From NCBI GenBank assembly GCA_031411835.1, contig JANOBV010000274.1:132-64131 (forward strand): 64,000 nt of DNA. Reading direction: 5' to 3'. Of the stretch, positions 3,827-38,159 are shown in pieces. The stretch is from Bacteroidota bacterium. Its GTDB lineage: Bacteria > Bacteroidota > Bacteroidia > AKYH767-A > 2013-40CM-41-45. A program made the position numbers and the translations under genes. Under the pieces are notes generated by a model. It searched no databases. It was not told the DNA's origin and saw only the letters and a list, made by a program, of their open reading frames with translations. Positions within the stretch are counted from its first letter, which is position 1, and the number at the start of each line of letters is the position of its first letter.

Positions 3827-4261
3827 TTATTCAAAAACTGGCCCTCTATTGGTATAAATCACATTCCATTGCTTTTCGATTTTTGAAAGTTCTATGATTT
3901 TATATTCTTGAAATATTTTTATTTCAGTCAAAGTACCATTAGCACTTTTAATTGAAAATGAATTATTTTTGTTTTGATTTTCGGTGTAATCCAATTCAAT
4001 TTGTTTTCCTGTAAATGAAGTAGACGAACTAGTTTCAAAATACTCCCTCATAATCATTTTTTTATTATAATAAATTTCCAAAGAATCTTTAAAACCAGCT
4101 TCAAAATATATTGTAACCTTATTATCGAACAGACTTTTTACTTCGGAAGTGTTTTTATCAAAGGATGTCTTAATTTCTGAACTAGCTTTTTTTTGCGAAG
4201 CACATCCTATATTAAAAAAGATCAGCAAAAGGAAAAATGTAATATTTTTCAAGTTTTTCAT
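3827..4261 (-). CDS. Lipoprotein, candidate cognate immunity protein of the main RHS metzincin tip
   Basis: 144-aa ORF with lipobox FFNIGCASQ. 4-nt overlap with the stop of the 4701-aa gene. Confidence 0.65.
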   Translation of the reverse strand: MKNLKNITFFLLLIFFNIGCASQKKASSEIKTSFDKNTSEVKSLFDNKVTIYFEAGFKDSLEIYYNKKMIMREYFETSSSTSFTGKQIELDYTENQNKNNSFSIKSANGTLTEIKIFQEYKIIELSKIEKQWNVIYTNRGPVFE

Positions 4262-7200
4262 TTTGTCGATTTTTTATCTTCGTCAATAGTTTCATAAAAT
4301 TTAAATAATTGGCCTGGAGTAGATTTTGTTGCAACTTTACCAGATCCATTATAATAACGATTTGAGACATCTGGGTTGGCGCCTGAATTCATTATGTTCT
4401 CTTGAATTCTAACATCTGGAGCAACGCCTTGCATTATATCTTCATCAGCGTCTCCTTTTTTAATTTCCCAAGGGTGTAATGCCCCAGCAGAGTGACCTAG
4501 TTCATGAGTGATGGTTCGAGATAAATCATCGTCACTACGACGAATTCCATCAACATAAGTGTATATTGAAATAACATTAGTTTGCGAATCTGCTCCTGGT
4601 CGCACAGGTGTTGAACCTGCCGTGTAGCTACCGTTTTTATCTGAAGTCGTAGCTTTTAATACTAAGGTAATCGTATTATTGTTGCCAACTTTATTTGCAT
4701 CCACAAATTCATATTCTAGTTGTGCACTATAATTAATGTTCTTGTCTTTATCAAATTGTGTATATGTTTGAGAAAATTGTTCTTGTGATTTTATAATTGA
4801 TTTTTGATTCTCTTCAACTGAACTTTCACAACGCGAAGCGTCGATGACTTGAATTTTTGTTTTAAAATCAACATTAAATTGCCCAGTCCTGATATCATAA
4901 CTAACTGTTTTTGACCACTCCTTGCCGTCTAAATCAATTCCGTCAATAACTCGATTTTCAGCAAATGTATATGGCGAATTCCACGGGAAATTATTTCCAA
5001 TTGGATCAATAGATAGAAATTTACCAAGCCTCGGATCATAAATCCTCATCCCATAATCCTGCAACTTCCCAACTCCTTTTACATCATTCAGATTTTCTTT
5101 GTCATTAAACCCAAACCGATAATCCGCACTACTCAACGTTCTCCCCGGCATGAGCATCCCAAACGGGTAATAGTCATTCGCAGTTGCAATTTCTGGCACA
5201 CTCCAATCTGCAACGTTATCGTTATTATTATCAAACAATACTTTCTTATCAGTAACAGTTGATAACACATTTCCCAAATGATTTGTAAGCTCATACATTT
5301 TTCTACCTGACCATGCAGAATAGAAATCAGGTTGTGTTGGAGTGGAAAAATCGAAAATTACTGTATCTACATTTAATACGCCAAGTCTGCTACTACCATA
5401 AATATTCAACTCTTTCAGTTTATATTCCCATCCATCTGTGAAAACATATGTGGCCATAATATTTCCTTGCGCATCGCGAACATGATAGAGTTGATCCATT
5501 GACCCCAGTCCAAAATGCTCTGTGTATGTTTCTACTTTGTTTCCCATTGGATCAAAGTAATTTAATATGAGATCTCTTGGGGTAAATGCAAAATACATTT
5601 TACCATTATTGTTAAAATCATATTGCATAGTGTCGGCTGCATCGTAGATAATGTTGCCGTTCAAATCATACTGATAATTTGCCGTGACTTGGGCATCCAG
5701 ATCTTCAGAATAATTTGAAGGGCTAACTGCATCATCAACAAAATCCAACATATTGGTACCTGAGAAATAATGATACTGAAGGCTGTCCATTTTTAAATAA
5801 GGTCCATTGTTTGTTGTACCATTTCGCTCATATGTAAGAATATTTCCGTTCGGATCATATTTTACATTCTCTTTATAATCTTCCAATCCGGCTGCTGTTG
5901 TCCATTCATGAATGGTGGTATCCAATCCATTATAAGCACGCTGAGCCGTCAACCTATTCAACTGATCGTATTTGTAAACATAACCAATATTTAGGAAATT
6001 CAAACTATCCATAGCTAAAACTGAGTGCCGGATATTTCCGTTATACAGACCATTATCCATTAAAGAACCATTCTTGTAGCTATCATTTCCAAACGTAGAA
6101 CCGCCCGTCGGATTGTAATTTGCTTCAAAATTACTTCCTCCAATTGGAGCATAATCCTGATTAAAGTAACCGAGATTGAATCCATATGCATCCCTAGAAA
6201 CAGGATCTATTCCTCCTAATGGTGGAATTGTACCATCTTGTCCCATATCGCGATTTGGATCTAGTTGAGAAGAATTAATTCCTTTCATCCAACCTTGCAG
6301 TGTATAAGCATAATCTATTCCCTGTACTTTATTCTCACCGAGTTCAACACGCGCAAGTGGACCATGCATATAATATGAATAGTGCGCATCTTCATCCCAA
6401 GTCATTCCATCGCGACTTGTATAAACATGTGTTATACGGTTGTCATCATCATATTCATAATGATGAGTAAATTGATCAATCGAATCACGTTGGTAATATA
6501 CATAGTTCACCTTTCCACTGATAAGATCATAATCATAATCGATCCGTTTGAATTGGTGATCTATCGAATTTAAAGTTGCAACTTCCTGTATAAGTGTTTT
6601 AACATTTCCGGAAATATCATAAGAGTAATGCGATGCCGAATAATAGTCTGTACTTGGATCATAAAATGAAAGATCAGAATAAGTCACACTAGAAACCCTG
6701 TTTCGCAGATTTTCCTGAGTAAATTGAGGAATTGTAAATACAGGTTCATCGTAATATGTCTTAGCTACTTCTGATTGCACACCAGCAGCGATCCATGCAG
6801 CAAACGAAGACGGATTTCTTGAAATTGCATTTGTTAAAGTAGTTGCGTTGGTAGTTTTTCCAACTTCTCCTACCCTTCCCAAATCATCATAAATTGTATA
6901 AGAATAACTATTCGCATAAAATTGAACTCCATTTTGCGAAGCAATGATTCTACCGACGTTATCATAGAAATAAACAACAGCATAGGCATCAGGAGTTTTT
7001 TGTCCTACAGGTTTATTCAATGAATTATAGTTATAAATAGTAGCGAATGGAGAAGTACGATATATTGGTGTAGTACCGAAACCACCATCTCTTACATCTA
7101 CAATTTGTTGCAATGTATCAGGATCATTGAATGGATGTACACCATTGGGCGGAATAGTAGCTACGAGATTTCCAGCCTGATCATAATAGTATAATGTGTA

Positions 7201-10200
7201 ATGATATTCTGAAAGTGGTCCATCAACATAAAAACTATCAACCATGGATTCGAGGCAATGCGCCATGTAATTATTTCTGAATTCTCCACGAAGCGAATCT
7301 TTATACAACTGATAATTATGTGCAGCGTTGTGATAGGCGAGTGTAATATAATCGTCCAGACATCCAGGAATATGGAATGTATCTGCAAGAGCAGGGAATT
7401 GCCCTTGATCACAAAGCAACAGGCTTCCTGAAGTATCGGGATGACAAGTTTGCAATTCAGTTTGGAGTTGCGCTTCTGTCCAAGTTTTTCCTAAATAATC
7501 ATTCACGAAATCCCACGGAGTTACGGTCGTATCATACGATGCAAGATAAGCTTGCATTGCTTCATCAAGAGAATCACAAGAAGACATAAGTATTCCACAA
7601 CTGTCAAGCATATGCAGATATTCCGGGTAACTAAAGCTAAGCCCCAATAAAGAATCTAAATAGACATTCAATACAGGAAGATCCAATACGTGTAAATGAT
7701 GATATGCTGCCAATGTATTTAATGTATCACAAGGAAGAGGTAAATAAATATCACAGTGATCAAACCAATATAAATAATCCCAATAATCGAATGTAAGGGT
7801 TAGTTGCGTGTTGAACCAAGTTGTAAGATCCTGCGGCGGTGTTAGCGCAAGGAAATCATTATACAACAATTGCAATGAATCACAATCTGTTGGATTAGGA
7901 GTATCTCCACCACAGCTAATTAGTAATGCATCATAATAAGATTGTGTATAGATGAAAGGATCGAGATTCAATATTGAACTTGCATACAAATAAAATAACG
8001 GTTTCGGTTGCGGCAAAGCATCGAACACTGAATCAATTGCAAGAATAGTATCACAAGGCAGCGGAAGTGCAATGCAGCCGTTGAACAAGTGCACATATTC
8101 ATAATATGTAAAGTTCATCGTCAGATGATCATTCATCCAATCATTCAAAGCAATCGTTGTCCCCGAAGATAAATATATTTGATAAAGAGAATCATAAACA
8201 TTACACGGTGAAGCGAATGGTGTATCAACATCACATATTGTAAACCAATCCCAGTATTGTCCAACAGTAAAATTAAGTTCCAATTCCGTATTTAACCATG
8301 TATACAAATCCGGGCCGGGTTGACGAACTTGGTAGTAATTGACATAGGTAAATAATTCAACACAATTATATGTGCTATCTGTAATATTACAGCTATCCAA
8401 AAGTACATTCACTGAATTTGAATCCGGATAACTTAGACCAAGTATCATATTCAACCATAAATAATACGGCGGACGTGGAGCAGGGAGTGCATTGTAAACA
8501 TCAGTCAGATCACTCAAACTATCACACGGAAGAAACGGATCAACACCACAACTATCGAGTAAATGAACATAGGTCCATAAATTATAATTCCAATTCAGTG
8601 TCGTAGAATCATTCAAATAAACATCCATTGCTACGACGTTCTGATAAGGAAGCCATTCGTAGTAGAGAGAATCTAATGTTTCGCAGAATGAATTCGCCGT
8701 ATCAATATTACATGAATCTAACCACGAAATAAATTGCTGATCTGAATAAGTTGTATTCATCGTATCATTTAACCAAACAAACAAACCATTTTGGATTAAT
8801 GAATTAGTGTAAACGCTAACCAAAGCACTTAGAGAATCACAACCTGGGAAACAATGGAAAAGATATAGTGTATCCAAACTACAGAATTCGACTAAGTGAG
8901 CATAGATAGAATCAGGAAGTCCCCATCCTGTTGTTGAATCTAAATATGCAATCAATGAAAGAGAATCGCTACAATTATAACTATTAATAAGGCTGGAAAT
9001 ATAACTACACGTATCACAAACTTCAGATACCGGACAACGAAGAAATACTTGTTGCCATTCATAATCTGTCAGAACAAGATCGAGCGATGCATTCAACCAA
9101 TTTTCCATGGTGATGTTAGTATCACATGGGTAGATCCCGGCGTAATAATTAATACTATCACAATTTGGAATGCAGTGTGAGATCCAATCGATACTGCAAG
9201 TATCCATCATGGAAATGAAAGTTGAATCAGAATAATTCCATCCGGATGCATTCGCAAGATAATCTCTCAACGAAATTGTATCATTACAATTATAACCTTG
9301 CATTAAACTATCAAGTACTGGACAAGGTGTACAAGTTGTATCAATAGCACATCGAACATAGATTAAACTCCAGTCATATTCAGAATATGATAAACCAAGA
9401 GTATCATTCAACCACATCCAAACCGGAATCGGACTTAAGCATGGATAATGTGATGCAAGTGCTTCAAGTGTATCACAATTAGGGATGCAATGGTGAAGCC
9501 AATCGATGTTGCAACTATCGAGCATAGAAATAAGGACAGAATCAGAATACGTCCATCCAGTCAAACTGTCGATCCATTGAGTGATAGAGATTGCAGAATC
9601 GCACGGATAGGAATTAACGATATCTTCCAGATAAGAACATGAATCACATGCTAAACTTCCCGGGCAATTCATCAATATCAATTGCCATTCATATTCTGAC
9701 AAAGAAAGATTGAGTGTATCATTTAACCAGACCCATCTTTCCAAAGTTGTATCACATGGGAAACTATGTGCTAGTTCAATGAGTGTGTCACAAACAACAC
9801 AATGATCCATCCATTGAATGTTGCAGCTGTCAAGCATGGATAATATTGTCGAATCAGAATAATTCCATCCGCTTAAAGTGTCTATCCATTCAGAGATCGT
9901 AAAGATCGAATCGCATGGGTAAGAAGCAAATAATGTATCGAGGTAATCACACGAGTCACAGCCTATAGAGCCGGGACAATTCAACAAGATCCTCTCCCAC
10001 TCGTACTCAGACAACGAAAGATTGAGAGCATTATTCAACCATACCCACCGTTCAATGCTTGTATCGCAAGGGAAATTATTTCCAAGTGAAACAAGAGTAT
10101 CGCAAGCAACACAATGATCCATCCATAGGATATTGCAACTGTCGAGCATAGAAATAATTGTGGTATCTGAATAGTTCCAGCCACTTAAACTATCGATCCA

Positions 10201-13200
10201 TTGAGAAATTGTGAAAATCGAATCGCATGGATAAGAAGAGAATAACGTAACAAGGTAATCGCACGAATCGCAGCTTATCGCACCCGGACAATTTATCAAT
10301 ATCCTCTCCCACTCGTACTCTGACAATGAAAGGTCAAGAACATTATTCAACCAAACCCAACGTTCGATGCTTGTATCGCAAGGGAAATCATTTCCAAGTG
10401 AGACAAGAGTATCACATGCAACACAATGATCCATCCATTGAATATTACAGCTATCTAGCATAGAAATAATTGTGGAATCTGAATAATTCCATCCACTCAA
10501 ACTATCGATCCATTGAGAAATTGTGAAGATCGAATCGCAAGGATAGGAAGAGAACAGTGAATCCAAATATAAACAGGAATCGCAGGAAATAGCAGCAGGA
10601 CAATTTATTAGTATTCGTTGCCATTCGTATTCTGAAAGAGAAAGATCCAACGCATTATTTAACCACACCCATCGTTCAATTGTGGAATCGCAAGGATAAT
10701 TACCTCCTATTTCAACCAATGAATCGCAAAGAACACAATGCTCTCCCCAATTAATACTGCAGCTATCCAACATTGAAATAATTACTGTATCAGAATAATT
10801 CCATCCGCTTAAGCTGTCAATCCATTGGGTCAATGTAAAAATTGAATCACATGGATATGAAATTACAAGATCACTTAAATGCTGACAGGAGTCGCAGGCC
10901 ACAGATCCAGGACAATTAGCGAGAATAAAACTCCATTCATATTTTGTATACTTTAAATTAAGTTTATAATTAAGCCATGCCCACCGTTCCATGGTTGTGT
11001 CACATGGGTAATCATCCGACAAAGCAACTAATGTATCGCAAAGTACACACCTATTCATCCATGAAATATTACAAGTATCGAGTAAAGCAACAACAGCAGT
11101 ATCTGAATAATTAAAATGGCCCATGCTATCGACCCACTGCAAAAGACTAAATGTCGAATGACATGGATAAGTAGCTGCCAGTGAATCAAGGTTGACGCAC
11201 ACATTGCAGTTTGTGTCCATTGGACACGCTAAAAATATTTGTTGCCACTCGTATCTGGTGAATGATAAGTGCATTTTTTGATTCAGCCATGACCACAAAG
11301 TTCTTCCAGTATTGCATGGGAATTGGTCCACATAATTCTGAAGAGTATCGCAATTATAAATACAATGAGCAAACCAATTGATGTTACAGCTATCAAGTCG
11401 AGGAATTAGTACACTATCAATGATATCATGCGGCAAATGTTCACTAAACCATTTTGTTAATTCAACTCCTCCATGACATGGATAACTTAGCAATATCTGA
11501 TTATATTCATCGCATGTATCACAATCAAAATTTATGTGACAAAATTCAAGGGCATATTCATAATCAGCTTGAGTATAATTTAGGCCTAATAAATTATTAA
11601 AAAAGTACTCAATTGTACTGTCTACCAAACAATCATACCCAGAATAAACGTCAATCAGTTTGTCACAATTTATGCAAGGCAATTGAATATGGCAACTATC
11701 CATGTAAACCAACCAAGTGGAATCCGAATAGGAAAACCCAAAATATGTATTTAAATAAGTAGCCAATGGCACTTTGCTTTCGCAATTGTATTCGGAAACC
11801 ACCATTGTCAAATTGTCGCAATTTATATGACACGGTATTTCGAATCTACATTTTATTATCAAAGAATCCCATTGTGTACTTGTATATCCCCAACCACTTT
11901 CATTTTCAAGATGCTGATAAACCGTTAATGTATCAGAACACTTATACTTATCAAGAAAGTGAGACAACTGCACACATGTATCACAATTAATTGTATCACC
12001 ACAAATGCGGAAATACATTGACCAAATATCAATATTTAAATTAACATCAAATTTGTCATTCATATAATCAACTAAAGATAAAGTGGATTTACAATTATAA
12101 GAATGAATAACATCATTAATGGATGCACAACAATTGAGACTAATATTGCATTCGTCAAGATAATGATAGTAAAAGCTATCCGTATAATTTGCCTGGAAAT
12201 AAAAATTCAACCATTGCATGAGAGTAATAGTGTCTTGAAAACAGTTGAATTCACCGACAGCTGCTGTAAGCAGTTCGCAATTAAATGTATTATGCGTAAT
12301 TGAGCAACTGTCAAGCCATTGCAAATAAAAAGACATTGAAAAATTATATCCAAGCATATCATTCATACACCTACTTAATAAGTAGGGAGGTTGAGAAGAC
12401 GCACATATATCATAAATTTCCTTAAGTGTATCACAAGATACTTTAACCTCAAGCCGATCATCAGTGCACATACTAAATATTGTCATATAATCAGAAAAGT
12501 TCAAATCTAAATTTAAATGAAAGTTGAAATAATCAGTAAATGGTGGTCTGACTGGAAGTGAAATGTAAGAATGATACCAATCCAATAAAACTTCGCATGG
12601 AATTGGTGATCTGCCATGGCATTGTTTCAGCCAAAGAATATATTCATGTAAAGTAAAATTAAGACCAAACGATGAGTTCATGCAATCAGCGAAATGATCT
12701 ACTGGATAACTAATACACGAATCTCTTTTGCTATTCAAAGAATCACAACTTATAGTAAATTCTGTCGGATCACCGGAAACGTAAATACCGCAATTATATA
12801 ACCATTTAAGAAGTGCTTCTCCTTCAATTGACAAACCTAAATAATTGCTGAACCAAACTGATAATGGAGGTTGATGCGTCAACAGATTATAAGCATTATA
12901 TGCTTCCCAAATTTTCATACAATCTATATATGGAACATTACAGCTATCCAACCAATTTGCATATGTATTCCAACTATAATCAACACCCAAAATACTATTC
13001 AACTGATTTTCAGGTGTAACACACTCTTCTATCGTCGGCCAAATTGAATTATAGAGGATTGCAATTGAATCGCATGAAGCAGATCCGGAAGGCACATCAA
13101 GTAAACAATCTGTAATTAATTTTGCCCATTGCTGATAGGTCAAATTTAAATCAAAAACCTGTTTAAGATAAACTGTTAGAGGCGGCCTAACTGTACTATC

Positions 13201-18363: not shown

Positions 18364-18365
18364 AA

Positions 18366-19055: not shown

Positions 19056-19059
19056 CGTC

Positions 19060-22000
19060 TTATTGTTTTTTGAAATTTGTTTGAGCTTCTTTAATTGTCA
19101 TAACACCTCTTTCTGTTTCCTTTTTCACTCTAATTAAATGGCCTTCATCATCATATTCATAAAATGTTGCATAGTTATTTGCATCCAATTCACTCATTAA
19201 ACGAAGTGATCTTGAACTATAAACAAACGATTTCATGTTTGAGTGATATGGATAGATTCTAAAGTCATCAAAGTATGCAGTGTTAGTTCCAGCGCAGAGT
19301 TCAATTCTGATTTTTGTCGCATTAGCTGGCACATCGAACACTTCATCATAGCGCTGCCATCCTTCTACAACAACTCCTTTCGGATAGAAAACATTCACAG
19401 CGGTATTTCCGGTAAAACTGACAACAATCGAATCCTGTGAATAACCAACAGGTCCACATGCCGCATCTTCTTTGACCCAAACACTTAAAATATACTTTCC
19501 TGAATCGGGTGAAAATTTATCGATACATCCATTGACCATTTCATACCAGATGCTATCTTTTTCGATATACAATGAGTCCTCGCCTTTATACATAATATCT
19601 TTTTCTACAAAAGCGCTTTTACCATTTGCAATATGTAAGGAGCGGTTTCCTGTATGTGAAAAATCCGTCGAAATAGAAATTCCATTTGCTGTATCAAGAG
19701 AATTTTGAAAATCGAAATGTTGCGATATACAAACTGAACAGGAATTTCTGAAATCATAATCTTCAAAATTATCATTAGCAGTTTGCTTTAACCTAGCATT
19801 TGCAGTCACCGCTTTTACGAATGAATTCACATAACCATAAATAGCTGATGAATAATGATCAAGCGCATCGTGACTTTCAATCTCAGTTCCTTGTTTCGAA
19901 ATACGTGTTACAGTATTTGTCGCAATCCAATTAGGGTCAGATTTCCCTGTATTATTCCAGCCGGAACTGTAATTCCAGAATGGAGTGAAATCTTCATAGT
20001 ATCCATCATCCTTAATTCTTGAAGCATTCACAGCAAGCGGTTTTCTGTTAGTATAATAATTCCAAGTTTTAGAAGGATGCCAGTTGTTTATCATTCCACG
20101 ATGATAAGGATTTGCGAACACGGTTAAATTTTCACAATCGTTTTGACAACTAATACATCTCAAATCAAACAAAACGGAGTCTCTATGATTCACTCCTACA
20201 TAAACAACACCATCAAATGGATTACTTGGTGGAATTAAAACAGGCATTAGTGAATCAAGATTAATAGGATTCCCTGACAAGCTTGTCATTGACAAATTAC
20301 ACTCACCAAAGTGCCACTCTGAGTAAGAAGTAACAGTGCTCGAAGACGGACAATTCAAACTATAGAACGGCATTGAATCAACATTTTGTTCGTTTATAGA
20401 ATCCGGATCACAGGAACAATGGCAATAATCGAAGAGCTCACCAACAGTTATACTATCTTCCACACAAGCATTGTAAACATTATTGCTGTGATTCAAATTG
20501 TAGTTGATCATTGCATTCACAAAATTTTCCAAACAAAATTCTGGAACCACAGTATCGCAATTTTGAACTCTCTCTTCACCACAATAAATTTTCCATTTAT
20601 CGTTGTACTCAAGTGCGCTAGCTGAAATAATTCTTGCATTAGAAGCCACTTCGAAAGTGTTTGTACTTGAATTAATCGGTGGCGATTTAATAGTTGTCAA
20701 AGAGCCGATAGGAAGCGATTGCATATTTCTTCTACCTGATCTTACTACTTTAAGATCTACCATATTAAAATTGAATACACTTGAAATAGACAGGAAATTA
20801 TATTGATCGTGTACTCTTAATACCCCATTATATTTTCCCACATAATATCTCCCACCTATAGGTACTTCATTTTTCTCCAGAACAATTTCATCGCCATCAC
20901 ATAAAAGATCATTGATGTTAGAGACACCTGAACCAATATAACCATCATGTATGAGCACATTCGGAATTTTCAAACCCGAATTTATATATGCAGGCCCCAT
21001 ATTCTTATAAGCCCAATGTGCAGGATATGTCCAATTGTAAATTGGCTCATCAAATTCATTCGTAGTTTTTGTGAGTAGTACTTCACCCGTTTCTGAATCC
21101 CTTAAAAGGTTTTGTTTTTCTACTGTTGAACCGTCTTTGACCTCAATAACTTTTTCAAGTATCCCATACTTGTGAACTACTTTTGTTGCAACAACTGATC
21201 GAAATTGCACCTCTTCGCTTGTGAATGAAGGGAGAATTGGAGGTAGGACAATAAACAAAGGGAAAAACCCTAATGGAAAAATAAAGCCATCCGAATTATA
21301 ATCTAGTTTTTCTCCTACGGTACTAGTATTCTCTTCTCGCATGTCCATACACAAATCAATATCTTGAGCAATTTCTCTGTTATAGATCTCTCCTTTAGGT
21401 GTAATTATATCAGCATGTTCATTCAATCTTAAATGATCTTTGAAGTTTTCAGATTTATATACGTATTCTGTACTACTTACATCATGACCAAATGCATTCC
21501 TAATTTTTACGTTTTTCGGCTTGCCATGCATATCATTAATTTCAATGGAATATCCTTGACTGACCATCCATTTCTCTGATGAATATAGTGATCCGAGAAA
21601 GCTTAGTTTGAAAGGTGGCTTCTTTTGCGCGGACAAAATATTCGTACGCGCAGTTATTACAGGAAAGTCTTTCGCTGTATAAAATGTATTCTCAGTATAA
21701 CCTGTTGCTGTTCTTCGAATATGTTCATTACTAAAATTTGAAACATATACCTTACTATACCCAACAACCGGGCTTGGAAAAAATGATTCGCCAAATGGCT
21801 CTTCTAAATAACCATAATCACTCGAACCTAGTGGCTTTGTAATTTCATAATTTACAGGTTGCTTAAAAGGATTTTCATCATTTCCTATAACCGGCTCCCA
21901 ATTGGCCACACCTGAACTTATGTATTTTCCTCCAGTTGTATCTGCATAAAAATACTCTTGTCCATACTCTTTATATAAACCATCAGTGGACATCGAATTC

Positions 22001-25000
22001 CAATTATCAGAAATCGTAATTCTTTTGACCCTACTTCCACCACCAAGTTTTTTGTAATTTGAATTTGTTAAACGAACAAATGACTTTTCAGGAATGAATG
22101 TTTCCGCCCAATGTTTTTTACATGCAGTTGTTTCAAATCCATCAAACATCGTCGCAATCTCCTTGAAAGAACCTATTAATGCTGTCATCGCATCGCCCAA
22201 ATTATTACCGGGATCAGAACTTCCCGGATAAATAACTTCCGGATAATTATTTTTTAAAAATTGCCATGCACTTCTAGCAACTGGATTTTTATTTCCTATT
22301 CTATCAATTTTCACCCAAATTACACCTTGCACACCTGGACCTCCAGCCTGATAAATTCCATGCCAATTTCCCGTTCTATCAATCGCACAATATCCTGGTA
22401 CATAATCTGGAAGACCGCCACCCAAATCCATATAAAACCTATAGTATATATTTTCTAGGTCCTTAATATATTTTTCATAGTAATTATCTGTATTCGGCAC
22501 ATCAATGAAAAGAATATTGCATTGATCATTGGCATCATTATACAATCTATTTGCACGGAAACTTATTGTCCCCGTTTTATCAGAACCAACACCGCTTACA
22601 AAATACATTTCGCCGGCACGTTTATTCTGCACATAAGCGTAATCATCTGACTCAAGATCTACTTTAATTGTTCCGCCTGAAGGTAGATTAATACTCTCCA
22701 AATTATAAGAACGAATAAACGGATTTGTTAATAAAGTATCTTGAATTGTGTATGGAAATTCTGCAGTTGAGACTGGACGACTTAAGCTGGAATTTGTTTT
22801 ATAATTTCCCCAGCGATCATAATTTTTTAATCCGTAGTCAGGATTTTGAACACTATAATTAAAGCTATAACTATTTAATTGACCTTTGGTATTTGAACCA
22901 TAAGTAAAATAAACTTTTTTTAAAGTAAGTTTTCCTTTATTCTGGTTAACATTACTCTCTTGTGTATAATATGAATAAGAACCACCTGTATTATTAATTG
23001 TATCAGAAGTATTATTTGGAACATTTGGACAAAGTGAATAGTCATAAACAAAGTGCACAGTTTTAATCGGAACAGCATTATATGGATTTCGAATTAGATC
23101 AGATTTCGAATACAACTCTATTGACCTAAGTAATTTCTGTCCACATGCATATTTTCTACTTGCACTTGGTTGCCCGCCATTCTCACTTTCAACTCCCATT
23201 GCATCCAATCTGTCTTCTATTTTAAAAACAGCGACAAGTGTTCTTGATTCGATTGAATTCACATACCAAATTTCCTTTTGCCCATACGAGTAAGATCCTT
23301 TAGCGTCACCACCAACACTTGATACCGGAGAACCATTTCCCGCATGCAATCCTCCATTATAATTTGCTTGATTCTGCTCATAAGGAACACGCCACTTATA
23401 ATCTGCAGTAGCTAGAGTATAATTAAATTTTATCGCATCACCATTATCATCATCAGAAATTCCATCACCTGTTCTATCGATATAATCAGCTGAAAGTATT
23501 CCGGAGATTAAATATGAGTAGGCATATCCCGGAGTGGTTTCTGAAGAGTAAAAATTGTCCAACCCTCTTGTGTTATGATCTTTATTGTTATCCACATTTG
23601 GGATGTACTCAACTAAACCGGATGCCGGATCTGTACCCAAATCTTTACACGCAAATGTTACATCCTTTTGAAAATTATTATATGTTGGTATGCCATAAAC
23701 ATAACGCTTTCCATCTGGCTTATTAACTGTGATTTCTGAAATATGATGAGCAGGTTTTGGTGCAATTGTAGTCCACCAAGAGGTGTGAGATACACCAGGT
23801 CTAAGTGAAATACAAGACCGATAATCAGGAATTACATTTTTAGTAAACGAAATCAATTTTAAATTCAAACCTGCAGCAGTTATTTCACGCCCAGTCAAAT
23901 ATGAAATATTCTGGATTCTTTTATCGCGAATAGCTCTTGCTGCAACAGAATTAATTGGAAGTGTCTCGATAGGTCTATTCTTTTCAACAGTTGTTTTTAA
24001 CAAAAATGGTAAATTCACCATATTCTGTTGCTTCAAAATGTTTACGACGGGGTTTTCATTTCCTATATAATTATTAAATTCTGTATCACTTAGAGTTTGT
24101 TCTCCAACAGTTTTAAAATAAGAACCTTCATAAGTCAAATTTGAAGTATGATTTTGAAAATCTAGTGTATTAATTACTCTATTATCATCAGTCCATTTTT
24201 TCGAAGTTGTGTTCACTGCAACTTGAGCAATATTAGCTCCTGCATGAGCAAGATTAGGTCCAAAACCCAATTGTATCCCACCACTAGTCGATTCACTTCC
24301 ACTTGTTGTAATATTATCATAAAGAATTCCAATATCACCACGATGCGCTCTGAACTGCCCGGATATTCCTTGACCATTAATTGAAAAAAGATCGTAAGTG
24401 TAATTTGCTAATGGTAAATTCGGTATCGCTTTATTATAGGGCCCGTCTTTTTCTCTATTAAAATCCTGAACAGCACTCAAACTCTTACTTCCCTCTGCTG
24501 AATTTAAATACCCATAACTGTTACATACTCTTCTCTTTGTTTCTAAAGTTTGTTTAGACCAATAACCTGTAAGAGATAAATTACCATGAATTCCCCATAA
24601 CTCTCCGCCAACAGTGCCATTAAACGTAAATGAATTGTTATGCATTGGCATTGCAATGGTAGGATTGAATGTCGGATAGCCAAATGATATGGAGACATTG
24701 GTATTAGCATTTCCATTTTTATTAGGAGCATTTTTATCGCTGTGCTTCCTCGTCCTTGAAAATGAAAGTTCCTGCAATCCTCCTCTTGTATTATATGCTA
24801 GGCTTGCTTTGTTATCAAATGAATTATTGTTTTTGTTTGCAGTAGAACTATAAGTTGCAGTTGCTGAAAGCGTAGTCCCATCTTGAGAGCTAACTTGCAT
24901 CCCAAGCGCTGCAGATTTTTCACCACCACCAGGTTTACTTACAGTAAGTGAAGGAGAAAGTCCAAAATTTATACCATACCCTTTGTAATTATTTGCACTA

Positions 25001-25497
25001 ATACCAATATTTGCATTCAATCCAATTGTTGCGCTGTCTCCAGTTGCGTCTCCTTTAGGAATATGAAACCCAAACAACTTTACATTAGCACCTAAATCAA
25101 TTCCCCAAGTCTTATTATCTTTCATGTTAAATTCCTTCACCAACGTATCACCCCAAAAATCATCTGGTAAACCACGCATAGATCTATTGATTGCTCCAGG
25201 ATTTATATTCCACCCAAGTCCAACCCAACTTGCTTCCTGATCGGAAGTTGGATTCGAATTGTAAATTAAATTCAGTGGATAATCACCAACTTCCATCAAA
25301 GGAATATTATAAGAGAAGTCGCCGGAAAAAAGGTCCACCATATCATTCGCACCTATCGGAGAAAACGAATTCACCTCCGGTTGTGTAGGGCCACTGGTAA
25401 GACCATAAGTTGTTAACGGATACAACAATTGAAAAGACATACAAAAAAGCAGGAGTACTGAAATTTTTCTTGAATATCTGGACCGTATTTCTTGCAT
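19060..25497 (-). CDS. Giant secreted protein (2145 aa) with an SpvB/TcB-like N-terminal motif, a C-terminal jelly-roll-like module and a terminal YD repeat
   Basis: N-terminus: PEVNSFSPIGANDMVDLFSGDFSYNIPLMEV...LNLIYNS...WVGLGWNINPGAINRSMRGLPDDF. Internal: DRTGDGISDDDNGDAIKF. C-terminus: YFDDFRIYPYHSNMKSFVYS...NNYATFYEYDDEGHLIRVKKETERG. Confidence 0.9.
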   Translation of the reverse strand: MQEIRSRYSRKISVLLLFCMSFQLLYPLTTYGLTSGPTQPEVNSFSPIGANDMVDLFSGDFSYNIPLMEVGDYPLNLIYNSNPTSDQEASWVGLGWNINPGAINRSMRGLPDDFWGDTLVKEFNMKDNKTWGIDLGANVKLFGFHIPKGDATGDSATIGLNANIGISANNYKGYGINFGLSPSLTVSKPGGGEKSAALGMQVSSQDGTTLSATATYSSTANKNNNSFDNKASLAYNTRGGLQELSFSRTRKHSDKNAPNKNGNANTNVSISFGYPTFNPTIAMPMHNNSFTFNGTVGGELWGIHGNLSLTGYWSKQTLETKRRVCNSYGYLNSAEGSKSLSAVQDFNREKDGPYNKAIPNLPLANYTYDLFSINGQGISGQFRAHRGDIGILYDNITTSGSESTSGGIQLGFGPNLAHAGANIAQVAVNTTSKKWTDDNRVINTLDFQNHTSNLTYEGSYFKTVGEQTLSDTEFNNYIGNENPVVNILKQQNMVNLPFLLKTTVEKNRPIETLPINSVAARAIRDKRIQNISYLTGREITAAGLNLKLISFTKNVIPDYRSCISLRPGVSHTSWWTTIAPKPAHHISEITVNKPDGKRYVYGIPTYNNFQKDVTFACKDLGTDPASGLVEYIPNVDNNKDHNTRGLDNFYSSETTPGYAYSYLISGILSADYIDRTGDGISDDDNGDAIKFNYTLATADYKWRVPYEQNQANYNGGLHAGNGSPVSSVGGDAKGSYSYGQKEIWYVNSIESRTLVAVFKIEDRLDAMGVESENGGQPSASRKYACGQKLLRSIELYSKSDLIRNPYNAVPIKTVHFVYDYSLCPNVPNNTSDTINNTGGSYSYYTQESNVNQNKGKLTLKKVYFTYGSNTKGQLNSYSFNYSVQNPDYGLKNYDRWGNYKTNSSLSRPVSTAEFPYTIQDTLLTNPFIRSYNLESINLPSGGTIKVDLESDDYAYVQNKRAGEMYFVSGVGSDKTGTISFRANRLYNDANDQCNILFIDVPNTDNYYEKYIKDLENIYYRFYMDLGGGLPDYVPGYCAIDRTGNWHGIYQAGGPGVQGVIWVKIDRIGNKNPVARSAWQFLKNNYPEVIYPGSSDPGNNLGDAMTALIGSFKEIATMFDGFETTACKKHWAETFIPEKSFVRLTNSNYKKLGGGSRVKRITISDNWNSMSTDGLYKEYGQEYFYADTTGGKYISSGVANWEPVIGNDENPFKQPVNYEITKPLGSSDYGYLEEPFGESFFPSPVVGYSKVYVSNFSNEHIRRTATGYTENTFYTAKDFPVITARTNILSAQKKPPFKLSFLGSLYSSEKWMVSQGYSIEINDMHGKPKNVKIRNAFGHDVSSTEYVYKSENFKDHLRLNEHADIITPKGEIYNREIAQDIDLCMDMREENTSTVGEKLDYNSDGFIFPLGFFPLFIVLPPILPSFTSEEVQFRSVVATKVVHKYGILEKVIEVKDGSTVEKQNLLRDSETGEVLLTKTTNEFDEPIYNWTYPAHWAYKNMGPAYINSGLKIPNVLIHDGYIGSGVSNINDLLCDGDEIVLEKNEVPIGGRYYVGKYNGVLRVHDQYNFLSISSVFNFNMVDLKVVRSGRRNMQSLPIGSLTTIKSPPINSSTNTFEVASNARIISASALEYNDKWKIYCGEERVQNCDTVVPEFCLENFVNAMINYNLNHSNNVYNACVEDSITVGELFDYCHCSCDPDSINEQNVDSMPFYSLNCPSSSTVTSYSEWHFGECNLSMTSLSGNPINLDSLMPVLIPPSNPFDGVVYVGVNHRDSVLFDLRCISCQNDCENLTVFANPYHRGMINNWHPSKTWNYYTNRKPLAVNASRIKDDGYYEDFTPFWNYSSGWNNTGKSDPNWIATNTVTRISKQGTEIESHDALDHYSSAIYGYVNSFVKAVTANARLKQTANDNFEDYDFRNSCSVCISQHFDFQNSLDTANGISISTDFSHTGNRSLHIANGKSAFVEKDIMYKGEDSLYIEKDSIWYEMVNGCIDKFSPDSGKYILSVWVKEDAACGPVGYSQDSIVVSFTGNTAVNVFYPKGVVVEGWQRYDEVFDVPANATKIRIELCAGTNTAYFDDFRIYPYHSNMKSFVYSSRSLRLMSELDANNYATFYEYDDEGHLIRVKKETERGVMTIKEAQTNFKKQ

Positions 25498-25500
25498 AAT

Positions 25501-26088
25501 CTAAATTTTAAAATCAGGAATATTTTTTATTGCATCTGTGGAAATTGAAAAATTAAAATCTTCAATTCCGGTACGCATTAACTTATCTTGGAAATGAAAT
25601 TTTAAACTATCGGACAACAATTCTTTCTTCTCAAAAATCATTTCAAAAGAATATCGATCTCCAACTCCACCGGTATTATCATATTGTGACATCAAACACT
25701 TCAAAGTATCTGAACAGTTAACCAAATAGGCATAATCATTAAAATGAAATTTCAGTTGACTATCATAACTTTCTTTTGTAAGTGAATCAATACTTCCAAA
25801 CAACATTCCTCTATTTGAATATATTTCTGTTTTAAAATAAATGTAGTCTTGAAATCGCTCTTTAACCTTTGCAAATTCTGCATCATTTAGTTTAATTCCT
25901 CTTAGTTCTTTCAAAGCTAAATAGTCACTTGGCTCATATTGTATTTCAACAACCATGTCGCCGAAGGAGTTTCTAATAACTAATCCATTTTTCGGATTTC
26001 GAACGTATTCCACATATTCTTTTGTCTCCAATCGGGTTGTACAAGAGCCCAAAATCAAAATAGAGAAAACATATATTAAATATTTCAT
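25501..26088 (-). CDS. Lipoprotein of unknown function, operon partner
   Basis: 195-aa ORF. Lipobox ILGSCTT. 3-nt gap to the downstream gene. Confidence 0.7.
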   Translation of the reverse strand: MKYLIYVFSILILGSCTTRLETKEYVEYVRNPKNGLVIRNSFGDMVVEIQYEPSDYLALKELRGIKLNDAEFAKVKERFQDYIYFKTEIYSNRGMLFGSIDSLTKESYDSQLKFHFNDYAYLVNCSDTLKCLMSQYDNTGGVGDRYSFEMIFEKKELLSDSLKFHFQDKLMRTGIEDFNFSISTDAIKNIPDFKI

Positions 26089-26093
26089 ATAAA

Positions 26094-27164
26094 TTAATTT
26101 TTTTCTGTAATCGTAAAATTCATTTTGTATTCCTCATTGAAAGAATTTCGAATCAGAAAACTGTAGTTTCCATTTTTTTTCAATCCGTCCAACTCCGAAG
26201 TATTAACAGTAATTTTATTCAGTCCATAAACCAAATTAATTTCAGGCAACTTTACTACAAACTTCCCGGTCTTGAGATCAACAATTGAATAATTCAACTT
26301 TTCGTCTTTTGTTCTATTATCATAGAGAAAACGAATAGCGTTTTTATACAAATAGTTTCCACTATTTATATTTCGATGAATAAGAGTAAATCCTTTTCCG
26401 GGATCTCCTTCATTCACATCTGTCTTTGGAGTAAACTTCCAAATCTCGGACTGACCTACTTTTTGGCCGGTATTATCAATTGCAATAACCTGCCAACAAT
26501 AGGTTATGTTATATCGCAATGGCACTGCATCAACCGGATAAGGCAGCAGCATACTTTTCCATGTATAATTCAACAATTTTAAATTTGACGAAATCGCATC
26601 TTCAGCAGTTGAATAAGGAGCAAACTCTGTTAATAAAACCCTATAGCTAACACCTCCGGTAAAAGTTGATATCCATTCAAGATCAGGATTCAATGTTTCA
26701 ATTATTTCACCATTGCCGGGCATAAGCAGATTAATCATCTCTGACTTATTCAGGTTCACTTCTTCGCACTCTTTCAAATCAATTTCTTCAGTCTTTATTC
26801 TTATTGAAGTACAAACTTCCAATCTTCCATAACCAATTTCATTTCCAACTGATAAAGCATTCGACATCTCATTTGAATAACTTGTAATGTTGAAATTCAA
26901 ATGAGATAAAGAGTTCAAACCGGGCAAAATATCCAATTCAAGATTCTGTCTCTGCACTATAATTTTCGCTGAAATACTTCGAATAGATATTTCAATTAGC
27001 GTCCTACATGTCGGTCCGGAATTTAAAATTTGAATGTCATGGAAATCCTCTGTTCTAAATGATTGATGTAAAGAATAATTATTTATTATTTGCAATTTCG
27101 ATTGTGCTCGAACAGATGTCAATAAAAATAAAATAGAAAATATTGTAAGTAATTGCTTCTTCAT
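26094..27164 (-). CDS. Secreted protein of unknown function (beta-rich, Ig/Fn3-like segments), operon partner
   Basis: 356-aa ORF. Signal peptide FLLTSVRAQS. 4-5-nt intergenic gaps on both sides. Confidence 0.7.
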   Translation of the reverse strand: MKKQLLTIFSILFLLTSVRAQSKLQIINNYSLHQSFRTEDFHDIQILNSGPTCRTLIEISIRSISAKIIVQRQNLELDILPGLNSLSHLNFNITSYSNEMSNALSVGNEIGYGRLEVCTSIRIKTEEIDLKECEEVNLNKSEMINLLMPGNGEIIETLNPDLEWISTFTGGVSYRVLLTEFAPYSTAEDAISSNLKLLNYTWKSMLLPYPVDAVPLRYNITYCWQVIAIDNTGQKVGQSEIWKFTPKTDVNEGDPGKGFTLIHRNINSGNYLYKNAIRFLYDNRTKDEKLNYSIVDLKTGKFVVKLPEINLVYGLNKITVNTSELDGLKKNGNYSFLIRNSFNEEYKMNFTITEKN

Positions 27165-27168
27165 TGCT

Positions 27169-29130
27169 TTAATATGAAAGTGTAATATTCATCTGAACTT
27201 GATAGCTTGAATTATAATTAATAAATTCTCCTGCAGAAAGAAAATCGTTCCTGCTTCCACTGAAACCAACTGACAGGTTTTTACTTTGACTCCAATTCGC
27301 GCCAATAGAAGTAACAATTGTATTTTGCACACCAATATTATTAATCGACAATCGCTCATTGAAACTGATCTTTTTTAGTCTGAACGAATGCATAACTGAA
27401 GTAGTAGAACCTAGTCTTTTCTCAATTCCGTAATCATTTTTGTAAATGTTTTCCTGGATTTGAATTACCGAGCTTTTCGCCTTATACTGAAAAACACAAC
27501 CATAATTTTCATTTATAGAATTAAGACCTGTAGCAGATTTCGAATAATTTTTACTATACAAAGTTTTAAAATCGGACTTCTTTGAAATCTGATAACCGAC
27601 TGAAATCTGATAAAAATTAGAAACATTTGTAAAGCCGTCTTCCTGCGTGTATACTAAATAATTATTTACACCATATTTAATTCCAAGCTTAATCTTTGAA
27701 CTAACCTTTAGATTCGAGTTAACTAAAATTGAATTTCTCTTCCAACTAGTACTAATTGCATTTTCAAACTTAAAATTCAGCTTAAGCTTATCAACGAAAA
27801 ACATTTTTTGAACTTCTCCCGACATTGCAGTATAACCTGTTGTTAAATACAGGTTGCCCGGAGTAAAATAATCTCTTCCAATTACCAAATACTTGGCTCT
27901 GATGTCACAATTCAGTTGTTTTACATGAGTGTTCAATTCAACACTTGCAGAATAGTCGCGCTCATTACCTTGTTGGTCGTCTTTAATATTTTTAGCAATT
28001 ACTCCAACGGCATCCACGCCTTTTACTATTTCTTTTTCTATGTTCAAAGAAACCAATGAAACCTGTGATGCTCTAGCCGGATCTAATTCTTTAACATCGT
28101 TGTCAAATTTTGTAAAGGATAATATTGTATTATTTCCCGGCCTTCCAATTCCGGCAGACAAGGAATAAAAATTTCGTCCTTTCTCATTTTCAAGAATAAC
28201 ATTGTTGAATGAACCTACACTCAAATTATCAAATGAAATTCGCCTGTTAATTCCTGATGTAAATCCGGCAATAATTTTTCCATCAGAGTATTTCAATTTT
28301 ATGCCGTTGAAATTATAATTGTACAATGTTAACCATGATTCGTTTGTTGATTGAACTCCGATATTGATCGTTTCGAAATTTGATAAAATCTTATGGCTCC
28401 TTTTTCGAATCGCCCCTACACTTTTCGCTTTTGTAATTATAGAATCATTCAATTCCTTTTGTTCTTTTAATCGAGCTTTCTTTATTTCAACCTCATTAAA
28501 ATAATTCTCCTTCAACTCTTCAAATTCAGCTACGGAATTTCTACAAGATCTCAATTGATTTGTATCTACCGAATAATCAACTTTTCTTAGTGAATCTCTA
28601 AAATCATTCGTATTGAGACTATCTTCTGAAACATTTAATGAATCGACAATTTTACTTGCATATCTTGCTGAGTCAATCTTGTACTTGGCCAAATACATTT
28701 TTGCAATCGAAATCAATTGTAAATATTCAGGATCAGAAAGTATTTTAGTAAGGCTATCTATTTTTTGATCATTAAAATTCTTCAGCTTACTTATACTATC
28801 TTCTCTTGCTGATAGTCGTTGAAGCATTTCATTTCTCGAAAATGAAATATTAAAACAATTAAACTGAACATTTCCATTGGGCAAGCGAGTTGCGTTCCAA
28901 ATGAAATTAACCGGGATGTCATATGCACTTATAGTTTCAACAAATTGAAAATTCGCAAATGCTCCACTTTGCCCATATAAATTATTTTGCATAAATCCGA
29001 TGCTCCCTGTTGTTCTTCCACTCACATTTATATTAGACAAAAGACGGCTTTTCTCCTGGGCAAAACTCGTTTTTATAAAAGTCAGCAGCATGCAATTAAT
29101 TATTAAATAATATAAAACTAATCTTCGCAA
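27169..29130 (-). CDS. Putative outer-membrane beta-barrel protein with a central coiled-coil segment; first gene of the operon
   Basis: 653-aa ORF. Signal peptide TFIKTSFAQE. Amphipathic alternating strands in the C-terminal half. C-terminal ...QMNITLSY ends in an aromatic residue, as OMPs typically do. Confidence 0.65.
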   Translation of the reverse strand: MRRLVLYYLIINCMLLTFIKTSFAQEKSRLLSNINVSGRTTGSIGFMQNNLYGQSGAFANFQFVETISAYDIPVNFIWNATRLPNGNVQFNCFNISFSRNEMLQRLSAREDSISKLKNFNDQKIDSLTKILSDPEYLQLISIAKMYLAKYKIDSARYASKIVDSLNVSEDSLNTNDFRDSLRKVDYSVDTNQLRSCRNSVAEFEELKENYFNEVEIKKARLKEQKELNDSIITKAKSVGAIRKRSHKILSNFETINIGVQSTNESWLTLYNYNFNGIKLKYSDGKIIAGFTSGINRRISFDNLSVGSFNNVILENEKGRNFYSLSAGIGRPGNNTILSFTKFDNDVKELDPARASQVSLVSLNIEKEIVKGVDAVGVIAKNIKDDQQGNERDYSASVELNTHVKQLNCDIRAKYLVIGRDYFTPGNLYLTTGYTAMSGEVQKMFFVDKLKLNFKFENAISTSWKRNSILVNSNLKVSSKIKLGIKYGVNNYLVYTQEDGFTNVSNFYQISVGYQISKKSDFKTLYSKNYSKSATGLNSINENYGCVFQYKAKSSVIQIQENIYKNDYGIEKRLGSTTSVMHSFRLKKISFNERLSINNIGVQNTIVTSIGANWSQSKNLSVGFSGSRNDFLSAGEFINYNSSYQVQMNITLSY

Positions 29131-29205
29131 TCTCCGTGTGAGTTTAACTAAATACTACATCAACTTTATTTTCGAATTGCACTGATAAAATCCATTCGTT
29201 AAAAC

Positions 29206-29238
29206 CAAATGTAAATTTCGCGACCATCGCTTCCAAAC
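29206..29238 (-). promoter_or_regulatory. Candidate Bacteroidota sigma-A promoter for the operon
   Basis: The minus strand reads TTTG-(20 nt)-TACATTTG. This fits the -33 TTTG / -7 TAnnTTTG pattern, roughly 75 nt upstream of the 29130 start. Confidence 0.3.
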
Positions 29239-29458
29239 TTTTTTTTCAACACAAATTATTTTTGCACCCGTTTTAATAAAAAAAAAGATAAAACACATTT
29301 CAAAATTCATTTTTAGATTGAATTCAAATAATTTTTATAAATATAGTATTTATACTACTTTTTAAAATTCGATTTCAATTCCCTTTTAAATATTTTTTAT
29401 TTTTTTTTATTCCGATTAATTATTTATCATTGAAACAATATTAAATAAATTATCAATC

Positions 29459-33130: not shown

Positions 33131-33171
33131 CACCATAGAAGCGCGGAGGACTACAGAGTAAAGTGTTGCAA

Positions 33172-33201
33172 TAAAAAAACCACGCGAGTGAGCGTGGTTT
33201 T
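33172..33201. terminator. Bidirectional intrinsic terminator
   Basis: aaaaaaa-CCACGC-gagtga-GCGTGG-ttttt, between convergent ORFs. Confidence 0.7.
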
Positions 33202-33233
33202 TCATTCTTGTGTGTTCATTTTATTTGACAGTG

Positions 33234-35994: not shown

Positions 35995-36060
35995 ATGGGT
36001 CAATATGATGTATCAGATCATGTTGATGGTCCTGTAGTTGCTGGTGAAGTTTCCGGTGAT

Positions 36061-38132: not shown

Positions 38133-38159
38133 GACTCGTGATGATAGGTAAAATCACAC

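Follow-up and report, generated by a model that had tools for sequence, protein, structure and literature searches.

We analyzed a window of 64,000 nucleotides (nt) from a Bacteroidota bacterium (assembly GCA_031411835.1, contig JANOBV010000274.1, positions 132 to 64,131) that carries an operon of seven minus-strand genes built around an RHS polymorphic toxin of 4701 amino acids (aa). On balance, and with moderate confidence, we read the genes that accompany the toxin as a Bacteroidota-specific module dedicated to its handling, which would carry the Sec-exported RHS protein across the outer membrane of the producing cell and display it on the surface. This reading draws on gene context, on conservation of the gene set across the phylum and on structure models.

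In order of transcription, the operon encodes a 653-aa outer-membrane protein (27169..29130, TTG start), a 356-aa exported protein (26094..27164), a 195-aa lipoprotein (25501..26088), a 2145-aa exported beta-rich protein (19060..25497), a 229-aa periplasmic LolA3-like protein (18366..19055), the RHS toxin (4258..18363) and a 144-aa exported protein presumed to be its cognate immunity protein (3827..4261). The open reading frame (ORF) listing reproduced exactly the coordinates given in an initial annotation made from the sequence alone; the genes are separated by 4, 5, 3, 4 and 2 nt, and the final pair overlaps by 4 nt. That annotation had the seven ORFs right, but the locus runs on downstream to about position 115 with orphan toxin cassettes. 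It had also given every ORF an export signal, and all seven N-termini indeed show one or more basic residues followed by a hydrophobic segment, as called by a hydrophobicity heuristic plus sequence reading. These include a signal peptide at aa 1-26 of the RHS protein, a type I signal peptide on the LolA3-like protein, a canonical lipobox (ILGSC) on the annotated lipoprotein and a lipobox-like NIGC on the 144-aa protein, while the signal peptide of the 653-aa protein is present if it is read from the TTG start. Hydrophobic N-termini recur among relatives of the outer-membrane protein (37/44), the 356-aa protein (60/63), the lipoprotein (47/52), the 2145-aa protein (71/82), the LolA-like protein (64/68) and the RHS protein (58/62). 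The AT-rich intergenic region upstream of the operon (29131..29458, minus strand, 328 nt) likely holds its promoter. The Bacteroidota -7 promoter element has the consensus TAnnTTTG, and the match to it by TACATTTG at 29213-29206 is no more than promoter-compatible.

Evidence for a functional unit comes from its conservation. Relatives of the 2145-aa protein were found in at least 560 species genomes, nearly all titled Bacteroidota, in a pattern scan that covered one genome per species, and 80 loci were kept. The kept loci belong to Chitinophagaceae, Saprospiraceae, Flavobacteriales, Crocinitomicaceae, Cytophagales and Sphingobacteriales, with isolates of Chitinophaga, Terrimonas, Flavobacterium and Pelagihabitans among them. 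Iterated profiles of the window proteins were run against the ORFs called in 81 related loci, and presence counts were restricted to loci with enough flank. The conserved order is barrel, 356-aa gene, an optional Skp-like gene, lipoprotein, 2145-aa gene, LolA-like gene and RHS gene; Terrimonas alba has the same gene order as the window. An RHS gene comes after the 2145-aa gene in 61/63 loci, and a LolA-like gene lies directly after it in 58/63. Upstream, the 356-aa family is found at 48/60 loci, the lipoprotein family at 41/60 and the outer-membrane barrel family at 38/60. The only firm unit is thus the trio of 2145-aa protein, LolA-like protein and RHS toxin, which is nearly invariant. The 2145-aa proteins of other families are only 32-40% identical to that of the window, and still the gap to the RHS gene is a few nucleotides; with linkage this tight across the phylum, chance insertion of RHS genes is not expected. 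Partners and RHS genes are therefore kept together, in the same order, in several Bacteroidota families, and searches of Pfam, NCBIfam and solved structures assigned none of the partners to a well-characterised unrelated family; on both points the initial annotation had named the contrary result as one that would refute it. Two complete modules lie in metagenome-assembled genomes labelled Rhizobium sp. and Akkermansia sp. (loci L005 and L040). Mis-binning of Bacteroidota contigs is the probable explanation; with correct labels, the two would be rare carriers of the module outside Bacteroidota.

The cargo of this putative module, the 4701-aa protein, is by its sequence a genuine RHS polymorphic toxin, as first annotated. 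It passes the NCBIfam model of the RHS-associated core (TIGR03696; 37.1 bits against a cut-off of 32.5, aa 4398-4480), contains the core/junction motifs DYYPFGMLMPGR and RIYDPRLGKFLSIDP (sequence reading) and has 6-7 YD motifs (YxYDxxGN-type, regular-expression search) between aa 3725 and 4230; a variable tip, an immunity gene and orphan cassettes complete the picture. The Pfam RHS_repeat match is sub-threshold (E=0.43), and sequence searches of solved structures with the N-terminus and the shell gave nothing useful; the shell is evidently too diverged for detection by these two routes. Region-by-region comparison against 72 RHS ORFs of related loci separates conserved from variable parts. An N-terminal region (about aa 100-1300, nt 14464-18066) is common to about 60 of the 72 and includes DUF6443 (aa 298-359, nt 17287-17472), which reached 36.6 bits against a cut-off of 27.8 when the N-terminal fragment was scanned alone. 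The YD-repeat shell (about aa 3600-4480, nt 4924-7566), whose last part is the RHS-associated core, also aligns with RHS ORFs of related loci. The toxin tip of about 220 aa (aa 4481-4701, nt 4261-4923) is Zn-metallopeptidase-like, with a HELGH motif and a Reprolysin_5 match of 24 bits (below the cut-off of 27), and its aa 4500-4701 are common to 0/72. A conserved N-terminus combined with a unique tip is what one would expect of a protein whose N-terminus serves in trafficking.

Between the conserved N-terminal region and the shell lies a lineage-specific, Cys/Trp-rich insert of about 2150 aa (about aa 1400-3550, nt 7714-14166), composed of repeats of about 100 aa (CDSC...YPCDS...W...). Within it, a 312-nt tandem repeat at 9659-10861 is present in 3.9 copies with 78% identity. 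The insert matches no Pfam family and is almost absent from the RHS proteins of related loci (essentially unique among the 72 compared); it could be a stalk or a receptor-binding part.

The 144-aa ORF, counted among the parts of the apparatus in the initial annotation, is better regarded as the presumed immunity gene: the two genes share 4 nt at the toxin stop codon, and no relatives of the 144-aa ORF turned up in the 81 related loci, which fits the polymorphic nature of immunity genes. Further downstream on the minus strand, a first orphan RHS C-terminal cassette of 313 aa (2810..3751) joins the core junction DYYPFGMLMPGR to a different toxin tip, and overlaps by 4 nt a 172-aa exported protein with a signal-like N-terminus, its candidate immunity protein (2295..2813). 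A second cassette of 294 aa with core repeats (771..1655) overlaps by 1 nt a 218-aa exported candidate immunity protein with a signal- or lipobox-like N-terminus (115..771), and a 144-aa lipoprotein ORF with a similar N-terminus (1711..2145) is a possible further orphan immunity gene. Three copies of a 93-nt core junction are present, at 5094-5186 within the main gene, at 3607-3699 (86% identical) and at 1535-1627 (81%), and a longer core repeat at 1395-1610 is 72% identical to 4954-5169; the repeated 93-nt junction is a substrate for recombinational swapping of toxin tips. Export of all four immunity candidates makes it most likely that the toxins act in the periplasm or envelope of the target cell, and this exported immunity, together with the orphan toxin/immunity cassettes, is a signature of interbacterial antagonism.

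The first gene of the operon encodes what the models predict to be a large outer-membrane beta-barrel without a recognisable family, in the size class of ushers and LptD; the first reading of the sequence, a protein resembling an outer-membrane barrel, thus holds. The AlphaFold2 model (mean pLDDT 73.5; about 85-95 in the barrel blocks) has about 26 beta-strands: after the first 4 comes a stretch of about 150 aa, helical and of low confidence, inserted ahead of strand 5 (aa 99-250, nt 28381-28836), and then about 22 strands, and the C-terminal residue of the protein is aromatic (Y). Foldseek against solved structures returned the FimD usher barrel, SlpA, LptD and porins (probability 1.0, E about 2e-8). 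No Pfam or NCBIfam family was found for the 653-aa protein or for 15 family members. The family is too diverged for pairwise detection and needs a profile: one built from 37 upstream ORFs of related loci (534-856 aa, mostly 700-850) matches the 653-aa protein at E=1.6e-32. In database searches, a word-indexed search found 1 relative, even with a 16-sequence alignment as query, and an exhaustive search found 16, which were used for the model.

Neither of the next two proteins has a match in Pfam, NCBIfam or solved structures. The 356-aa family is marked by conserved Cys, Pro and Trp motifs, and 3 of 16 relatives weakly match DUF928 and 1 of 16 an Ig-like domain. Some members reach 930-2059 aa; these carry large insertions, and fusion to the barrel was rejected as the source of their length. 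A lipobox-like motif is found in 30/52 members of the 195-aa lipoprotein family. We considered whether this protein could be the LolB of a LolA/LolB pair, but no likeness to LolB or LolA was detected (hhalign probability 1%).

The 229-aa protein, by contrast with its initial description as one of two small secreted proteins, can be named: exported as stated, it is LolA3-like. It matches the NCBIfam model LolA3_fam (NF053579) at 74.4 bits (E=9.7e-21) and LolA1_Flavo at E=4e-5. Among its counterparts in operons elsewhere, 7 of 10 score above the LolA3_fam cut-off (85-222.5 bits, the highest in Flavobacterium supellecticarium) and 3 below. By these matches LolA3 as defined by NCBI is a component of this module in these genomes. 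A profile of the LolA-like family found no solved LolA structure by sequence. LolA3 of Flavobacterium johnsoniae (Fjoh_0605) was named in 2025, when its deletion was found to be without effect on gliding or on type IX secretion system (T9SS)-dependent secretion; that paper contains no mention of Rhs and gives LolA3 no function (PMC11885536). According to a 2026 report, the crystallised LolA3 of Porphyromonas gingivalis (PGN_0947) binds LolB only very weakly, which the authors took as a sign of a separate function, as yet unknown (PMC13103446). Likeness to LolA/LolB sorting thus extends to the match with LolA3_fam, in the window protein and its counterparts, and to a type I signal peptide as in LolA; unlike in that pathway, LolA3 is here fixed in an RHS operon and no LolB-like partner was detected.

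Homologues of the 2145-aa protein form more than 3251 clusters, annotated as hypothetical or by an accessory domain (PA14, PKD), and searches of Pfam, NCBIfam and solved structures, family profiles included, returned no relative. Conservation, judged by the invariant columns of the family alignment, is highest in an N-terminal motif (aa 36-116, nt 25150-25392) and in a YD-repeat-like motif at the extreme C-terminus (YEYDxxGxLxRVKKETERG; aa 2099-2137, nt 19087-19203). The latter is a weak single YD repeat (RHS_repeat, E=0.21), and a Cys-rich variable region lies at about aa 1640-1800. In the structure model of aa 1-1200 (pLDDT 63.6), a run of about 12-14 long antiparallel strands at aa 115-432 (nt 24202-25155) forms predicted amphipathic beta-hairpins, with one face hydrophobic and the other rich in Ser/Thr/Gly/Asn, and almost uncharged. 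A fold search with this model gave only weak matches, to small transmembrane barrels (OmpG, probability 0.97, TM score 0.36) and to secretin pores, and nothing among viral structures. Paralogy with the RHS protein was rejected, BLASTP giving no significant match between the two. The gene is tandemly duplicated in five loci (L057, L060, L061, L073 and L011; 1895 + 1892 aa in L057). In about 20 it is divided between an N-terminal ORF of about 1850 aa and a C-terminal one of 300-1150 aa; insertions of PA14, GLEYA or PKD occur in some homologues.

Known secretion systems do not account for the operon by any gene found in the window. Pfam and NCBIfam scans of the seven proteins detected no PAAR, VgrG, Hcp, TssB/C, TcA, POTRA/TpsB, usher or T9SS C-terminal domain, nor did any of these families turn up in the larger ORFs elsewhere in the window (about 20 of 45 ORFs of at least 90 aa), where the smaller ORFs were unscanned and a small Hcp or PAAR is possible. 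The initial statement that the window lacks genes for a type VI secretion system (T6SS), TcA, POTRA/TpsB proteins or T9SS-tailed giant proteins therefore stands for the operon proteins and the larger ORFs. Cargo of the T6SS is loaded from the cytoplasm, and delivery by this route is unlikely because the module proteins have Sec signals; the RHS protein has a signal peptide and no PAAR or VgrG, and no T6SS families occur among the scanned window ORFs. With other RHS toxins (T6SS Rhs effectors, TcC, WapA) it shares the YD shell, a core with a DPxG-type junction, the variable tip, downstream immunity, and orphan toxin/immunity cassettes with a repeated core junction. It differs from them in having a Sec signal peptide in place of PAAR, prePAAR or VgrG, in adding the 1300-aa Bacteroidota-specific N-terminal region with DUF6443 and the 2150-aa Cys-rich insert, and in its linkage to five non-T6SS partner genes.

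Two further systems offer functional analogies only. Like CdiA beside CdiB (type Vb secretion), the window toxin is a giant, Sec-exported polymorphic protein next to a dedicated barrel and an immunity gene, and by this analogy it is probably displayed on the surface for contact-dependent delivery. In contrast to that system, no Omp85/POTRA or two-partner secretion domain was found by Pfam or NCBIfam, the 653-aa model has no POTRA, haemagglutinin repeats are absent, the barrel has about 26 strands rather than 16, and there are four additional conserved partners. Chaperone-usher systems likewise combine a periplasmic chaperone with a barrel of about 24-26 strands, and the best fold matches of the 653-aa protein are to FimD. 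These matches (TM 0.3-0.47) are generic for large barrels, there are no Usher or PapD Pfam matches, and the window chaperone is LolA-like rather than Ig-like, its cargo a giant RHS protein rather than pilins.

A T9SS encoded elsewhere in the genome is the alternative that we take most seriously, although we consider it unlikely: the RHS toxin, and perhaps the 2145-aa protein too, would cross the outer membrane by this route, with the partners acting as adaptors, chaperones or anchors. The host organism has a T9SS, as indicated by a 273-aa protein in the window (52009-52830) with a Por_Secre_tail C-terminal sorting domain. At the locus of Flavobacterium sp. DGU11 (L057:1-7651), genes for a CHU_C-tailed giant protein (T9SS type B), PorP/SprF and a PorE-like TPR/PD40/OmpA protein lie on the same strand upstream of the module, about 1.3 kb ahead of its Skp-like gene; the arrangement may point to the T9SS or be fortuitous. 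Kharade and McBride are said to have found in 2015 that Fjoh_0604 and Fjoh_0606 were lost from the medium of F. johnsoniae T9SS mutants. Gene adjacency has led to T9SS proposals for P. gingivalis PGN_1817/1818 (PMC6775972), for Apibacter (PMC8125069) and for TANFOR toxins (PMC7073777). These toxins resemble that of the window in being Sec-dependent polymorphic toxins of Bacteroidota, but the case for them comes from adjoining T9SS-tailed genes, where the window operon instead has a barrel, a LolA3-like protein and the 2145-aa partner. No type A (Por_Secre_tail/TIGR04183) or type B (CHU_C/TIGR04131) domain was found on the seven proteins, a negative that is meaningful because the same Pfam library detected Por_Secre_tail in a neighboring gene of the window, and none appears among the precomputed Pfam domains of 120 listed homologues of the 2145-aa protein. 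The C-terminus of the RHS protein is the toxin itself, and the dedicated large barrel found in cis at most loci would be redundant with SprA. Deletion of lolA3 leaves T9SS function intact, though the converse is not thereby addressed (PMC11885536).

Variation among the related loci bears on what the module transports and how. A gene for a Skp/OmpH-like periplasmic chaperone lies between the 356-aa and lipoprotein genes in 23 loci. In three loci (L071, L065 and L017) the module is preceded by a co-directional cluster encoding a pilin, a prepilin peptidase, a GspE-type ATPase, a secretin and a PilN-like protein, whose genes overlap or nearly abut and which is separated from the module by 37-335 nt; three more (L033, L037 and L050) show partial traces of such a cluster at the limit of the fetched flank. 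One of the three is from a Flavobacteriales metagenome-assembled genome (L071:1-27442), with 14 co-directional genes, mostly overlapping or abutting, in the order pilin-like, prepilin peptidase, GspE-type ATPase, secretin, PilN-like, four small genes and then the module; here, after a gap of 278 nt, the module consists of the lipoprotein, the 2145-aa gene in two pieces, LolA3 and RHS. Most secretin-linked loci have no large barrel in the fetched flank, which is compatible, on few loci, with an interchangeable outer-membrane conduit. The window itself has neither the Skp-like chaperone nor the secretin cluster nor the T9SS extras of these variants, and the parts of a type II secretion or type IV pilus-like system (secretin, GspE/PilB ATPase, pilin, prepilin peptidase) are absent from it. 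The initial claim that the toxin has no recognisable secretion system is therefore true of the window, but some related loci do carry a Skp-like chaperone or a secretin/ATPase/pilin cluster.

In Pelagihabitans pacificus (L065), whose secretin cluster spans L065:298-9984, a protein of more than 3100 aa with leucine-rich repeat (LRR), Ig and CHU_C-associated Ig domains (L065:16478-25798) comes next after the 2145-aa homologue, and the 2145-aa family may serve giant surface proteins in general. This locus is an argument for a second alternative, one to which we give somewhat less credence than to the T9SS: the upstream genes would make a surface structure of their own, for example a giant adhesin or fibre equipped with a barrel, a chaperone and a lipoprotein, which RHS genes merely adjoin or to which RHS proteins attach. 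The frequent duplication and splitting of the 2145-aa gene, the adhesin-type domains (PA14, PKD, GLEYA) of some homologues and the position of the module beside a type IV pilus-like cluster in a few loci point the same way. Against it stand the RHS genes that follow in 61/63 loci at gaps of a few nucleotides, despite the divergence of the 2145-aa proteins, and the 1300-aa N-terminal region specific to the RHS proteins of the module.

The initial annotation had also called the 2145-aa protein SpvB-like, which our searches did not bear out. Its N-terminal motif (FSYNIPL...YPLNLIYNS...GLGWNI...RGLPDDF) has a pattern-level likeness to the SpvB-domain start of TcB, which no tool detected. No Pfam match was found with the full protein or with aa 30-140 at E<=5, two profile searches of solved structures were empty, and the fold search with aa 1-1200 returned no TcB. 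A Tc-toxin-like (ABC) complex directed against eukaryotic cells, with the 2145-aa protein as TcB- or TcA-like component and the RHS protein as a TcC-like cocoon, is accordingly very improbable: the size of the 2145-aa protein in the TcA range, its one weak C-terminal YD repeat and the SpvB/TcdB domains of some Bacteroidota RHS proteins (PMC8125069, PMC3482391) are outweighed by the absence of any SpvB, TcdB mid-N/mid-C, VRP1 or TcA match to the whole protein or the isolated motif, by family profiles and a fold search that find no Tc component, and by the exported immunity genes and orphan cassettes that mark interbacterial antagonism.

Several observations weigh against a module dedicated to RHS export and display. 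The barrel is absent beside 22/60 loci, the lipoprotein beside 19/60 and the 356-aa gene beside 12/60; the secretin link is seen in only 3-6 loci, and in L065 the giant LRR/Ig protein stands in place of LolA3 and the RHS gene. The window's LolA3-like protein falls under the 83-bit cut-off of its family. Foldseek TM scores of the 653-aa model are only 0.2-0.47, a generic barrel similarity, and the reading of aa 115-432 of the 2145-aa protein as membrane hairpins is based on weak fold matches, while a strand-face hydrophobicity test of this region gave no discrimination from control strands. More generally, function is read from gene context and from models of moderate confidence (pLDDT 63.6 and 73.5). 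The dedicated, uncharacterised delivery apparatus of the initial annotation thus gains from co-conserved partners, the barrel model and a window without a known system, but its delivery role comes from gene context.

If the module does export and display the toxin, it might work as follows, each individual step deserving less confidence than the reading as a whole. Sec would bring all parts into the periplasm, where the LolA3-like protein would keep a hydrophobic or lipid-bearing partner soluble (candidates are the lipoprotein and the amphipathic hairpin region of the 2145-aa protein), helped in other lineages by the Skp-like protein. The 653-aa barrel would serve as outer-membrane conduit or anchor, a role that the secretin cluster may take in a few lineages. 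Through its N-terminal amphipathic beta-hairpin region, the 2145-aa protein would enter a membrane, and it would dock the RHS protein by the conserved N-terminal 1300 aa of the latter, possibly via the YD-like motif at the C-terminus of the 2145-aa protein. The RHS cage would then carry the metallopeptidase toxin to a neighboring cell, in whose periplasm it would act and where, in sibling cells, the exported immunity protein would neutralise it. With a toxin acting in the target periplasm, delivery need cross only the outer membrane of the target. We put forward tentatively, as a possibility that is more doubtful than probable, that these parts amount to an unrecognised Bacteroidota-wide outer-membrane secretion or delivery system, non-homologous to types I-XI, in which a LolA3 chaperone, the 653-aa conduit and a membrane hairpin barrel of the 2145-aa protein would present the RHS cage or translocate it into the neighbor's periplasm.

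The remainder of the window contains several other features. Divergent from the operon, 29459-32306 encodes a secreted 575-aa PKD-domain protein and then a 227-aa ORF whose sequence suggests a LuxR-type response regulator, which could regulate the operon. The region 33000-49600 has a G+C content of up to 0.435 (about 0.33 elsewhere) and many short ORFs without families. It also encodes a GmrSD-type restriction endonuclease (41981-43588), a MerR-type regulator (46880-47782) and a large serine recombinase (48004-49539). The recombinase gene overlaps a minus-strand tRNA gene (49502-49573) with its 3' end, and the region as a whole resembles a mobile element integrated at the tRNA. A cluster for inositol-lipid synthesis (55756-62756) comprises myo-inositol-1-phosphate synthase, a CDP-alcohol phosphatidyltransferase, DUF4833 and a PAP2 phosphatase, with a DUF5686 outer-membrane protein (57943-60537) inside it and a TonB-dependent-like barrel (53106-55535) just upstream.

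Full-text literature searches, in which subscription journals were not covered, found no published description of the module or of DUF6443. In a 2012 survey of polymorphic toxins, those of the RHS type from Bacteroidetes appear only under "T2SS" (that is, a Sec signal) or "TcdB/TcaC" (PMC3482391). The toxin is thus of a known kind, while the accessory module and the place of LolA3 in it appear undescribed. The outer-membrane route of Sec-dependent RHS toxins in Bacteroidota is an open question, for which published suggestions derive only from adjoining T9SS-tailed genes. This locus points to a defined set of partner genes in hundreds of species, culturable strains of Chitinophaga and Flavobacterium among them, which makes the question testable genetically; candidates are Chitinophaga japonensis DSM 13484, C. 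niastensis DSM 24859 and Flavobacterium supellecticarium, joined by F. johnsoniae should Fjoh_0604-0606 be this module. LolA3, left without a role by deletion-mutant and crystal-structure studies, gains a concrete functional context. Should the module prove to be a self-contained exporter, it would constitute a new outer-membrane transport pathway and, for Bacteroidota of soil, freshwater and marine habitats, a new way of antagonising other bacteria.

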